A stretch of DNA of 64,000 nt. Origin: a virus. Where the stretch lies: the IMG/VR virus record IMGVR_UViG_3300008117_000079, one strand, 5' to 3'. A program made the translations under genes and the position numbers. Position 1 is the stretch's first letter. Every line of letters starts with the position of its first letter. Below, piece by piece: positions 38,267 through 44,316 of the stretch. The notes beneath the pieces are model-generated. The model did not search any database, was not told the origin of the DNA, and saw only the letters and a list, made by a program, of their open reading frames with translations.

Positions 38267-38290
38267 AAAAAAAAACCTCCGAAGAGGTCC
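38267..38290 (-). terminator. rho-independent terminator after UVR-protein gene
   Basis: Minus strand: GGACCTCTTCGGAGGTT followed by nine T residues. Confidence 0.6.
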
Positions 38291-38293
38291 TTA

Positions 38294-38677
38294 TTATTTT
38301 AACGATTTTATTTTGTCTCGGAGTTCAATACACTTTTCAAAGTCTTGGTTTTGAATGTGACTTTTTAACTCGTCGTTTAACTTTTTAATTTCTTCTTGGT
38401 TTTGTTCAAGATTTTTAATCTTATCCCTTAACTCAACCGCAAGTTCAAACTCTTGATTCTCAATTACCATATCAAGTTTTTGTTTTAATTCATCAATCTC
38501 ATTTCTATTTTTTCCATTTTTAATGTAGACAACGTTTACTGACCCATCTTCGTTTGTGTAAACCCTTTTCTCAAGGTTATTATCACCAGTTAAAAACTGA
38601 TCAAAGTTAAAGGACTCATTTCTAGAAAAAAAGTCGTCAAATAATCTGTTAAATTTGTTAAAATTAAATCTATCCAT
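38294..38677 (-). CDS. small protein with two UVR (UvrB/UvrC-type) motifs
   Basis: Two copies of a UVR-like helix: ENQEFELAVELRDKIKNLE and QNQDFEKCIELRDKIKSLK (cf. the EFExAAxLRDxI consensus). Divergently oriented to the ClpC-like gene. Confidence 0.5.
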   Translation of the reverse strand: MDRFNFNKFNRLFDDFFSRNESFNFDQFLTGDNNLEKRVYTNEDGSVNVVYIKNGKNRNEIDELKQKLDMVIENQEFELAVELRDKIKNLEQNQEEIKKLNDELKSHIQNQDFEKCIELRDKIKSLK

Positions 38678-38836
38678 TTTTTATTTTTTTATTTGGTTTA
38701 TTTTGGTTAATATTTATACTAAAAGGATACCAAAATTTATAAACCTGACATTTTGTCATATAACACAAGACATTATGACATTGTGTCAATACTTTACTAA
38801 AAAAATAAAAATTACTAAATTTAAATAAAAAACATT

Positions 38837-40882
38837 ATGGCAATAGAATTCATTGATGACAACGACAAGAACAAGAAAAAAAGTGATAGTGGAACTCCGG
38901 TTCTAGACAACTTTAGTAAAGACTTAAATAAGTTAGCTCAAGAAGGTAAATTAGACCCTGTAATAGGTAGAGAAGATGAAATTATTAGAATTGCACAAAT
39001 TTTATCTAGAAGAAAGAAAAACAACCCTATTATTATCGGTGAACCAGGTTGTGGTAAAACAGCAATTGTAGAAGGGTTGGCAATGATGATTCATAGTGGT
39101 GAATGTCCTAAAAATCTTTCAGAGAAAAGAATTGTTTCCCTTGAGATGAATTCAATTGTTGCCGGTACAAAATATCGTGGACAATTTGAGGAAAGAATGA
39201 AAGTAATAATTGAGGAACTTCAAAGTAATCCAAACATTATTCTTTTTATTGATGAGATTCATACAATGGTTGGTGCTGGTAATAGTTCTGGTTCACTTGA
39301 TGCCTCAAACATCTTTAAACCGGCCCTTTCTAGGGGTGAAATCCAATGTATTGGTGCTACAACCCTTGATGAATATAGAAAGCATTTTGAGAAGGATGGA
39401 GCTCTTGAGAGAAGATTCCAGAAAGTAATTGTAGAACCATCAACAAAGGCTGAAACTTTTCAAATTTTAAAAAATAGTAAAGAAAAGTATGAAGAACATC
39501 ACAAGGTAACATATTCAGACGAATCACTTCTTTTATGTGTAGAACTTGCCGATAGATATATTACAGATCGTGAGTTTCCGGATAAAGCTTTTGATATTAT
39601 TGATGAGGTTGGGTCAAGAATGCAAATTGATATTAAACTTCCTGAAAGTATTGAAAATCTAAAACAAGAACTTCTTGAAATTAAAAAGGAGAAGTCTGAC
39701 GTTATAAAAAAACAGAAATACGAAATGGCTGCTGAGTTAAGGGACCGGGAAAAATCAGTAATGTCATCACTTGATGCCGAAAGATTAAAATTTGAGGAAG
39801 AACTTAGAAATAGTAAAAGAGTAATTCCGGAAGATTTAATTTATGAGGTTGTTTCTAAAATGACTAAAATCCCGGTAAGCAAAATTAATGTTGACGAGAA
39901 AAACTCTCTTGTTAATTTAGAGAACGCACTAAATAGCTATGTAATTGGTCAGGCTGAAGCGGTAACAAAAATATCAAAATCCATTAGAAGAAATAGAATT
40001 GGAATTAAGGACCCAAATAGACCAATTGGTTCATTTATCTTCCTTGGGTCAACCGGTGTTGGTAAAACATATCTTGCAAAGAAACTAGCAAAAGAAATTT
40101 TTGGTAGTGAAGATAGTTTGATTCGTGTTGATATGTCTGAATATCAGGAAAAACATACTATATCAAGGCTTATCGGTTCTCCTCCAGGATATGTTGGTCA
40201 CGAAGAGGGTGGACAGCTTACAGAACAGGTTAAAAATAAACCATACTCTGTTATCTTATTTGATGAGATTGAAAAGGCAAATAAAGATATCTTCTCAACA
40301 CTTCTTCAAATGCTTGATGACGGGCATATGACCGACGGACTTGGAAGAAAAATTAACTTCAAAAATTGTTTAATTATTATGACATCAAATATTGGTGTTA
40401 GAAAATTACAGGATTTTGGAACTGGAGTTGGGTTTAAATCAAATAGTAGTGAAGCAGTAAGAGAAGAAGAAAAAAGAGATATCCTCAAAAAAGAATTAAG
40501 TAAGTTCTTCGCTCCAGAATTCCTAAATAGAATTGATGACGTTATTGTCTTTAACTCGCTTAAAAAAGAGCACGTTGACCGGATTGTTAAAATTGAAATT
40601 GAGAAGTTAGTTAACAGAATTGAGTCAATGAAATATAAAATTACATACGATGAGTCAGTTGTTGAATTGATATCTGAGGTTGGGTTTGATGAACAATTTG
40701 GTGCAAGACCAATTAAAAGGGCAATCCAGGATAAAATTGAAGACCTTATCTCTGAGAAAATATTACTAAATGAAGTTCTAGAAGATGTTGATTATAAATT
40801 GACAGTTGTAGATAAGGAAATTAAGATTGATGTTCTTATTGAGAATAAACCTAAAAGGGGTAGAAAGAAAAAGGAGGGTTAA
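38837..40882 (+). CDS. ClpC/ClpA-family AAA+ chaperone ATPase (two nucleotide-binding domains, no Clp_N domain)
   Basis: D1 Walker [30 protein letters not shown] Walker B. Internal UVR-like linker motif [15 protein letters not shown] as in ClpC. D2 Walker [25 protein letters not shown]. Starts directly at D1, so the N-terminal double Clp_N repeat is absent. Confidence 0.85.
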
Positions 40883-40898
40883 AAACCCTCCTTTTTTA
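40872..40898 (+). terminator. rho-independent terminator after ClpC-like gene
   Basis: GGAGGGTTAAAAACCCTCC hairpin followed by TTTTTT. Confidence 0.6.
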
Positions 40899-41681
40899 AT
40901 GTTTGGTATAACCAAGTTCCTCAATCATTAACTTACCTACCTTTATTCCGTTGTATGTATCATCAATAACAACGTACTCATTTCTTGTGTGGTAGTTGTA
41001 ATAACCAATTGAGATATTAAAACAAGATATCTTATATCTTTGATTTAAAGGATAAATATCCGTATATGGATGTCTATGGTATTTTGTGTCCTTTGGGAAA
41101 TGTTCTGTAATCAACCTTCCACCAACCTTAAAGAAATCACTATCCCGGGTAAACATTGGCGCACTCATAAGAAACTCAGAAATCATATTATTTTCTGGTG
41201 CATCAAACTGAATAACATAACCCACGTTTTCAAAGAAAGCCGAATCTGAGTTAAATGACCCTTTACATCCAGTTTCTTCAGCAACAAAGAACGCAGCTTT
41301 TAGGTTTGGCATTTCCTCAAGAAGTTCAAGACAGGCAAATACGCCACATTTATCATCACCACCAATACCGGTTGGTTCTCCTTTATCGTTATAAGCTTTA
41401 AGTGCTAGTTTTATCTCTTTCTGTGCGTTTGGAAGCATCTCCTCAACGACATTTATTGTATCAATATTGTGAACAGTGTCTGTGTGGGCTACAACACAAG
41501 GAAAATACTCAATATTGGTATCTGTTTGTTTTGTAGCATATACATTATAGTATTGGTCCAGATAAAATGGAATATTCTTTGACTCAAGCCAGTCAACAAT
41601 AAACTCAATCATTAAATCTTCCTGGTAGGTCTTAGTCGGAACCGAAAGGACCTTTTTTAGTAATTCAAAATTTCTTTCCAT
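40896..41681 (-). CDS. clan MH metallopeptidase-like protein (M20/M42-type motifs), short form
   Basis: Motif order CVVAHTDTVH ... GIGGDDKCGV ... VAEETGCKGS ... YNYHTRNE fits the His / Asp-Asp / Glu-Glu / His metal-ligand arrangement of M20/M28/M42 peptidases; 261 aa is shorter than typical. Confidence 0.5.
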   Translation of the reverse strand: MERNFELLKKVLSVPTKTYQEDLMIEFIVDWLESKNIPFYLDQYYNVYATKQTDTNIEYFPCVVAHTDTVHNIDTINVVEEMLPNAQKEIKLALKAYNDKGEPTGIGGDDKCGVFACLELLEEMPNLKAAFFVAEETGCKGSFNSDSAFFENVGYVIQFDAPENNMISEFLMSAPMFTRDSDFFKVGGRLITEHFPKDTKYHRHPYTDIYPLNQRYKISCFNISIGYYNYHTRNEYVVIDDTYNGIKVGKLMIEELGYTKH

Positions 41682-41709
41682 AGCCCAAATATAATAAACT
41701 TATTTGATA

Positions 41710-42744
41710 CTACAAAATTCTATTTAAAATATCTTTAACACTTTCAAATAATTCTGGGTGGTATAAATTTAAATAAAGATCCTCAAGATTGTCAACACTT
41801 CTTTTTTCCATCTTACCACCTTTTTTATATAATTTAAAAACTAGTTGTCCGGTATGTGGATCAATACTATCAAATATAACAGATATTTCCTTTTCTTTTA
41901 AATCAAGCATTTTATTGAACCCTCCAAGTTTTACAACAACATCATATATTTTTTGAAACTCGTCGTGAACCCCTTCTTCTTCAATTATCTCAATTATTTT
42001 GTCAAGTTCGTGACTAATCTCCATTTGGACTCCTTCTGAATCATAGTCATCACAAAATGAGTTATATCTAATCTCTTCCCAACCACCAATATCACTTTTT
42101 GGGTTATATTTTTCAAATAAAGATTTAAGAAGATGTTTAATATCATCATCTTCCATTTTTAACATTCTATACCAATTAAGTAAAATACCAACTGTTGTTT
42201 TAAATCTGGATCCGTGCCATACTTCAATAATTCCAAATCTATCAAATGGTTTTTCTGTTTCTCGTCTTATAATTTCTTTAGCCCCATCAATTTGACATCT
42301 TTCATTTTCATTTGCATATGCCGAAATGATATTTTCTACTTGATCTTCATAAATCCCAAGTATTCCATTTAAAATATCACTTCTTACTGAAGTTTTTGGT
42401 GAAAGTGATAGTCTTACAATTTTTTCAAATTTTTCTTTATTCTCATTGTTAAAACCATCTAAAATGTATCCTTCTTTCCATTCATCTCTATAGGTATACC
42501 AATCCCAGTCACTAGAGTCGCCATACATTATATAGTTATATGTCCAGGCGTCATTTTCATCAACACCTAATATCTCTAGGAAGTCACTGTCCTTATCAAA
42601 ATCTAAAGTAATTTGTGATGCCAATGGGTTTTTTTCGTTAATACGAATATCGTGGATTAAGTCATCCGGGTAATTCCATCTATTATACCCTGAGTCCTCA
42701 CCTTTTGCAATTTGTTTTAAAAATTCGTATGTATTTGTTGGCAT
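41710..42744 (-). CDS. hypothetical protein
   Basis: 344-aa acidic ORF; no motif. Confidence 0.45.
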   Translation of the reverse strand: MPTNTYEFLKQIAKGEDSGYNRWNYPDDLIHDIRINEKNPLASQITLDFDKDSDFLEILGVDENDAWTYNYIMYGDSSDWDWYTYRDEWKEGYILDGFNNENKEKFEKIVRLSLSPKTSVRSDILNGILGIYEDQVENIISAYANENERCQIDGAKEIIRRETEKPFDRFGIIEVWHGSRFKTTVGILLNWYRMLKMEDDDIKHLLKSLFEKYNPKSDIGGWEEIRYNSFCDDYDSEGVQMEISHELDKIIEIIEEEGVHDEFQKIYDVVVKLGGFNKMLDLKEKEISVIFDSIDPHTGQLVFKLYKKGGKMEKRSVDNLEDLYLNLYHPELFESVKDILNRIL

Positions 42745-42810
42745 ATAGTATAAATATGTTTATATTTGTATTTATATATAGTTCTTTGATAATAGTCATT
42801 TACAATATAC

Positions 42811-43201
42811 GGGGATGTATTGGATTTGACAGGCGTTGGTTGAATAAAAGGAGCATGTCGGGACTGAATTAATCTCGTTAAAAACTGATTCACTTTTTAA
42901 ATGGCAATGTGCTAAACAAAATGGAAGCTGTTGGGTTAATCCGCACTTCTGAGGTTGCTGTAGCGTAATCGCAACAAAAACCGGGGGCCGGCAGACATAT
43001 AGCCTAGCAACAGAAGTCGTAGTTTTATAGAGCAACCTGGTCGGCTCTCTAAATCCGGATTAGAAACCATTGGTTGTTGATTTACGATGGAAAAGAACAA
43101 ATCAACTATTTTGGGGTATTAGAAAATACCAACCTAAGCATGTAGTGGTCTTTTAAACAAGACGAGCTGGACCGGGGAGTCGGAGCCCCGCATCTCCACC
43201 A
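42811..43201 (+). ncRNA. ssrA: tmRNA (SsrA-like transfer-messenger RNA), CCA encoded
   Basis: 5' end GGGGATGTATTGGATTTGACAGGCG parallels the canonical tmRNA 5' end GGGGCTGATTCTGGATTCGACGGG. 3' end ...CGGGGAGTCGGAGCCCCGCATCTCCACCA gives a T-arm plus 7-bp acceptor pairing with the 5' GGGGATG and an encoded CCA. An internal ORF AAT GTG ... GTT GCT GTA GCG TAA (NVLNKMEAVGLIRTSEVAVA*) has its stop inside a hairpin (GTTGC TGTAGCGTAATC GCAAC), as helix 5 does in tmRNAs. ~390 nt length typical. Confidence 0.6.
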
Positions 43202-43208
43202 ATTAATA

Positions 43209-43235
43209 ACCTCATCATACGATGGGGTTTTTTTA
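43209..43235 (+). terminator. rho-independent terminator after tmRNA
   Basis: CCTCATCATACGATGGGG hairpin followed by TTTTTTT. Confidence 0.55.
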
Positions 43236-44316
43236 TGTCTTAAAATTATATATTATTGCTGTACGATTTCTATATTTTTGTGTAAACAAAAAAAGGGATC
43301 AGTTTCCTGTCCCTACTAATTTTTTTTGTCTTATAAGATTAAACCTAAAAAGAACGTTGAGATTACACGTTTTATTGAGAACCTTTAGAGTCATTATTTA
43401 TTCTACTCCTATCCACTTCCTTTTGAGAAGTATTTCTCAGTGACGGTCACTTAGGGGAACCACTCCTTGAGATTTGGACTACTCTCACCTTACTTGACTC
43501 TTTCCGAGGATGCCTCCCCAGTTCGTCCTTGCGGGACTAAAGGTTTTTCGGATAATTACACTTAGACTTGGGATCCTTGTGTGCAATGAACGGCTCATTA
43601 CTATGTAGTCACCTTTCATCCAAACCTGACGGACACTTTTCCTTTCTGATTAAATTAATTTCATAATTTTTTCTTAGGTTTTTGTGTCGTGGATTATGAA
43701 AGTAGTGGTCCGCCACCAGAGCCAGCTCATCTTTTGAACGAGCCGATACTCAACTACTCTCTGAAATGTCCCCATCTCAATATTTTAAGATTACTTCGTG
43801 ACTTATGCCTTGGTAGGCAAGGGTCAAGGATAATGTCAGCACCACCTGTTTGTTATCATACCTTTCGGTTTTAAGTATCCTCTGATATTGGGACACGCAA
43901 TAATAAAATTGGATAATCTTATTTTTTGCAATATCCCTACGAGTTATTCCTATTGGTGTTCCCACCTCAACCGGACGACCCACATCGCCCAATCATCTAA
44001 CCACTTTCCCTACAGCGTTGCCCTCGGTACTAAAGGTTAAACGGTATCCCGCTTGTATACTTAAGTTCGGTTACCCAAACCGCAGATCAGTTACACTACT
44101 GACCCACTTTATCCTGGTTTCCCAGTTTATTTATTGACTATATACGGCCAAATATCTTTATCAGTTTGTTACTCAGAATCAACCGCAAGGATTTCATCAT
44201 CAAACATTCTGAATGGATATTCTAATTTTTCAAAGAACGATTTCGGACGTTTCCGAATTTGTTTTACAAAGTTACGACACTTTTTTCAGTTTGTCAAGTA
44301 CTTTATGAACTTTTTT

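Follow-up and report, generated by a model that had tools for sequence, protein, structure and literature searches.

The window, a 64,000-nucleotide stretch of viral DNA (IMG/VR record IMGVR_UViG_3300008117_000079), harbors a block that comprises, in this order, genes for a small protein with two UVR motifs, an AAA+ unfoldase of the ClpC type without the N-terminal domain (N-less ClpC), a predicted metallo-exopeptidase and an orphan protein of 344 amino acids (g344), followed by a tmRNA and a GOLLD RNA. The ATPase, the tmRNA and one small 132-aa ORF are the only features of the region on the + strand, the other genes being encoded on the - strand. Structural and tail genes adjoin the block. 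The ATPase, the small UVR protein, the peptidase and the tmRNA were all found where an earlier note on this DNA had placed them, with signals far above chance; that note did not mention g344, the GOLLD RNA or the operator pair described below. A blastn search against deposited phage genomes gave no match, and the block was found again in hundreds of uncultivated jumbo-phage contigs. Homologous loci are referred to below as lineage 1 or lineage 2.

The ATPase gene (38837-40882, + strand) encodes a polypeptide of 681 amino acids that matches the Pfam families AAA, AAA_lid_9, AAA_2 and ClpB_D2-small, with Clp_N absent from its Pfam matches (the best 25 of 31 families). The best solved structure is ClpC from S. 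aureus (PDB 6em8, E=1.6e-216); residues 10-667 of the phage protein align to residues 149-806 of ClpC in one ungapped-style stretch. It follows from this collinearity that the N-domain is missing and that the M-domain has the length found in ClpC, in agreement with the earlier description of a ClpC-like ATPase lacking Clp_N; when the protein was checked for a ClpB-type M-domain, the M-domain proved to be of the ClpC type. The gap of 159 bp to the divergent UVR gene leaves no space for an N-domain exon, and the place of the domain is taken by a short conserved peptide that is first acidic and then basic. The N-domain is absent from all 86 lineage-1 homologues as well as from about 45 homologues of lineage 2, whereas catalytic motifs and pore loops are kept: the Walker A and Walker B motifs of the ATPase are both intact, the KYRG pore loop is present in 86/86 homologues, and a GYVG loop is also found. 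The closest cellular homologues are ClpC proteins of Bacteroidota (840-860 aa, 55-59% identity), which do possess an N-domain and share with the phage ATPase the M-domain motif YE.AA.LRD and the GVGF loop. The host of the lineage is most probably a member of the Bacteroidota, and the phage gene may have been captured as a clpC from a Bacteroidota-like host, with subsequent loss of the N-terminal domain. Similar to the ClpC proteins of Firmicutes (S. aureus, 6em8; B. subtilis, 3j3s) and Bacteroidota, the phage enzyme has two AAA+ rings, a ClpP-docking loop, a D2-small domain and a short coiled-coil M-domain that carries a UVR motif and has an aromatic residue at its tip. It differs in that the N-terminal domain of ca. 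150-170 residues is absent from all phage copies examined; in cellular ClpC this domain binds MecA, phospho-arginine and cyclic peptides, stabilises the resting state and filters substrates.

A scan for the ClpP-docking loop, suggested earlier, located it at residues 530-533 (G-V-G-F), which align with the corresponding loop of ClpC. The tetrapeptide is G-[VIM]-G-F in 86/86 lineage-1 phage homologues and in 46/47 of lineage 2, while the residues just after it drift freely, which argues for selection on the tetrapeptide as such. We found no ClpP gene in the 64-kb window, nor at a distance of up to 8 kb from the ATPase in about 85 lineage-1 loci, and a ClpP partner is therefore assumed; it would be supplied by the host or be encoded at another place in the phage genome. 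Since neither ClpP nor SmpB has a match in the window, the earlier characterization of the block as a self-contained phage system does not hold. The missing ClpP gene, the position of the block beside structural and tail genes and the fact that the top NCBIfam scores are for the ClpB model would all suit an ATPase that is independent of ClpP, a stand-alone unfoldase or disaggregase that remodels or assembles a very large virion or dismantles host complexes. We regard this as improbable in view of the invariant docking loop with its drifting flanks and the ClpC length of the M-domain, to which the ClpB model fits only as two separate stretches. Moreover, in one phage contig (L204) a ClpP homologue is encoded directly 3' of the N-less ClpC, in the same operon.

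The best reading of the ATPase is that of a naturally de-repressed ClpC which docks on host ClpP, and this fits published results on engineered ClpC variants. In S. aureus ClpC the M-domain serves mainly for the head-to-head contacts in the repressed resting state; without the N-domain this state is destabilised, planar hexamers capable of binding ClpP form, and ATPase activity rises (PMC12583610). Deletion of the N-domain only did not give proteolysis in vitro, as M-domain contacts persisted; when these contacts were broken as well, the enzyme degraded substrates without adaptor, gained activity on GFP-SsrA and was the most toxic form (PMC12583610). The domain architecture of the phage ATPase is that of the variants without N-domain, alone or combined with F436A (PMC12583610), but the phage proteins form a natural, widespread family that keeps an aromatic residue in the M-domain. 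This residue, a Tyr that matches F436 of S. aureus ClpC, is conserved in 82/86 homologues. Its retention speaks against full de-repression, as does the lack, in 48 of 78 relatives, of a UVR gene to relieve the contacts. The N-less ATPase would need no help to assemble into hexamers and to dock on ClpP through G-V-G-F; the result during infection would be a protease of relaxed specificity that requires no adaptor.

The UVR gene (38294-38677, - strand; 127 aa) is followed by a hairpin resembling an intrinsic terminator (38271-38292, - strand; a 9-bp stem, then a T-run), which indicates that it is a single-gene transcription unit. Pfam UVR was detected in two stretches of the protein (E=9.4e-13), and the AlphaFold2 model is helical in residues 59-125 (helices 59-72, 76-108 and 112-125; pLDDT 85-90), so that the two UVR helices described earlier are indeed present. 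Residues 1-56 were modelled with low confidence; this N-terminal part is poorly ordered and contains a conserved F-N-x-L-F-[ND] motif and a β-hairpin. All 131 members of the family are 95-185 aa long. Both repeats align to residues 276-308 in the M-domain of the ATPase, and the best PDB matches of the family profile are the C-terminal UVR motif of McsA and the ClpC M-domain, not UvrB. The UVR gene is divergent from and adjacent to the ATPase gene in 35/35 cases (62-212 bp apart), homologues of only 40-48% identity included, and it was never found away from the ATPase gene. Its distribution over the ATPase tree is patchy (present in 30/78 relatives, absent from 48/78), and no ATPase residues covary with its presence (maximum mutual information 0.33, at variable positions only). 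Because of this absence and lack of covariation, the gene is to be considered accessory, and the protein no obligate adaptor. The idea of a phage-specific adaptor, put forward in the earlier note, is thus favored by the strict adjacency and by the alignment of the repeats to the M-domain, but not as an obligate function.

We infer that the UVR protein binds the M-domain of the ATPase. It might cap this domain and relieve leftover M-domain to M-domain repression, or alternatively act as an adaptor supplied in trans. Chloroplast ClpF is a ClpC adaptor with a UVR motif. McsA, the activator of protein-arginine kinase and a regulator of ClpC, also has a UVR hairpin: the NCBIfam McsA model is matched at positions 133-176 of 182, the best profile match is PDB 8wtb, and the JGI annotation calls many members of the family McsA. 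However, the match to this model reaches 47 bits where the cut-off is 210, and the phage protein has one Cys, no CxxC zinc-finger region and two UVR hairpins instead of one; McsB was not found among the scanned ORFs of the window. The resemblance to MecA-type adaptors is that of small proteins that would contact regulatory domains of ClpC and control its activity, without similarity in sequence or fold, and MecA needs the N-domain that is absent here. The earlier note names the UVR helix as the element with which ClpC binds McsA and MecA; this is not precise, since MecA and phospho-arginine substrates act via the N-domain (PMC12583610).

A protein aimed at the host, either as a decoy for the M-domain of host ClpC or by sequestering the UVR domains of UvrB and UvrC, seems very unlikely to us. 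In its favor, UVR hairpins mediate the contacts between UvrB and UvrC in nucleotide-excision repair (textbook knowledge), and the family profile matches UvrB C-termini too; furthermore, the M-domain motif of Bacteroidota ClpC is nearly identical to that of the phage ATPase, so that a decoy could hardly distinguish between them. The preference of the profile for McsA and the ClpC M-domain over UvrB, the strict adjacency and a control region shared with the phage ATPase gene speak against it.

This control region (38678-38836) contains two 13-bp palindromes, TGACA-N3-TGTCA, at 38746-38758 and 38776-38788, i.e. 30 bp apart. A motif count gave these two as the only exact matches in the window, against 0.04 expected. 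The same palindrome recurs near positions -97 and -66 relative to the start of the ATPase gene in 62/84 lineage-1 loci, whether or not a UVR gene is present, on a background of 30 hits per 1.3 Mb. They occur upstream of the ATPase only, not of the tmRNA. From position and recurrence, the pair is predicted to be a conserved tandem operator dedicated to the ATPase gene. In about 40% of relatives, and also in this phage, the ATPase gene has its control region in common with the UVR gene.

The peptidase gene (40896-41681, - strand; 261 aa) is convergent with the ATPase gene, and a likely bidirectional terminator (40867-40897; 14-bp stem with A- and T-run flanks) lies between them. The zinc-peptidase-like character proposed earlier is borne out by a match to Pfam M20 (25.8 bits, cut-off 24.6) that covers profile positions 3-205 of 206 within 191 residues, by weaker matches to M28 and M42 and by a match to PHROG 4191 'peptidase' (E=2.6e-34). 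The metal-binding and catalytic motifs HTD, GGDD, EE, D and H are all intact and kept in about 79 homologues. On these motifs the protein is assigned as a putative dinuclear metallo-exopeptidase of clan MH (M20-like). It shares the catalytic domain with its H-x-D, D, E-E, D and H motifs with the M20-family exopeptidases PepD and PepT, whose models are weakly matched. Unlike these enzymes it consists of the catalytic domain only, with no lid/dimerisation domain, and it scores far below every NCBIfam cut-off. Such a lid-less exopeptidase could plausibly trim released peptides to amino acids. Some proteins of the M20 family are amidohydrolases rather than peptidases, which counts against this role. 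Of 80 loci, 77 have the peptidase next to the ATPase, and a longer paralogue (ca. 340-360 aa, 44% identical) is co-directional with the ATPase in 15 loci. The g344 gene (41710-42744, - strand), between the peptidase and the tmRNA, encodes a conserved orphan protein.

The tmRNA (42811-43201, + strand), which is followed by a terminator-like hairpin (43208-43229, + strand), passed the covariance-model check with Rfam RF00023 (86.7 bits, gathering score 47, E=2.9e-32); ARAGORN made no tmRNA call in the window and called homologues in 11 relatives. Its acceptor stem contains a G3:U70 pair, and the CCA end is encoded. The tag ORF (42903-42965, stop codon TAA at 42966-42968) reads GNVLNKMEAVGLIRTSEVAVA, 21 residues with the AVA end noted earlier. 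Its frame is kept in 43 phage tmRNAs with the periodicity of coding sequence (entropy 0.79/0.53/1.15 at codon positions 1/2/3), and the tags of 21-22 residues have K6, G11, L12 and A21 invariant. In 51/53 loci of sufficient length, a homologue follows downstream of the ATPase at a distance of 1.9-5.6 kb. No SmpB gene was found in the window; in 6 relatives one lies beside the tmRNA, as phage-encoded tmRNA and SmpB genes are known from huge phages (Al-Shayeb et al. 2020, PMC7162821). Phage G also combines a tmRNA and Clp components in one genome, but its tag has 13 residues and its partner is ClpXP, not a ClpC-type ATPase without ClpP (PMC12484599). The phage tmRNA would rescue stalled ribosomes and append a phage-specific 21-residue tag, which may feed the same protease. 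The earlier proposal that the tag feeds the phage ATPase, like a link of the ATPase to the peptidase, draws on gene order, for the tag within one collinear lineage.

We give about even chances to the view that the locus is a conserved accessory block of uncultivated T4-like jumbo phages built around a captured N-less ClpC that docks on ClpP. The block would probably allow the phage to commandeer protein degradation and translation quality control of the host, with host ClpP still required. A possible but rather doubtful alternative is that ATPase, peptidase, g344, tmRNA and GOLLD RNA are neighbours by descent only, each an independent auxiliary gene in one variable region between tail genes and a tRNA array; the tmRNA would then cooperate with host SmpB and with host ClpXP or Lon, and the tasks of the ATPase would have nothing to do with those of the peptidase. 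Lineage-1 loci are all broadly collinear, terminase and portal genes included, and their conserved adjacency is thus largely inherited and weak evidence for functional coupling. Every gene has a terminator of its own or forms a separate transcription unit, most relatives do without the UVR gene, and the tmRNA lacks the operator of the ATPase. Neither a tmRNA nor g344 lies within 10 kb of the N-less ATPase in lineage 2; there, just four loci have a UVR gene (L196 only) or a peptidase gene within 10 kb (three loci, adjacent in L177 alone). Inheritance fits less well with the two arrangements in which a peptidase adjoins the ATPase, convergent or, for the paralogue, co-directional and operon-like, with the confinement of the UVR gene to the side of the ATPase, and with the shared + strand position of ATPase, tmRNA and 132-aa ORF among - strand genes.

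Convergent with the tmRNA lies a GOLLD RNA of ca. 960 nt (43354-44316, - strand). Its conserved 3' domain (43354-43761) is a full match to the Rfam model (RF02032, 319.1 bits, gathering score 150), and the 5' domain, which reaches about 44316 and contains no ORF of more than 90 aa, was delimited by nucleotide-level conservation in 32 loci (up to 440 bits). Like the GOLLD RNAs described before (PMC12286853), it is phage-borne and lies near tRNA genes; it differs in being convergent with a tmRNA, 2.5 kb from an N-less ClpC, an arrangement for which no published description was found in the literature. Of 42 lineage-1 loci of sufficient length, 25 contain the RNA. Its proximity to N-less ClpC recurs in lineage 2, where GOLLD is located 2-6 kb upstream of the ATPase in 9 loci while the other neighbours differ.

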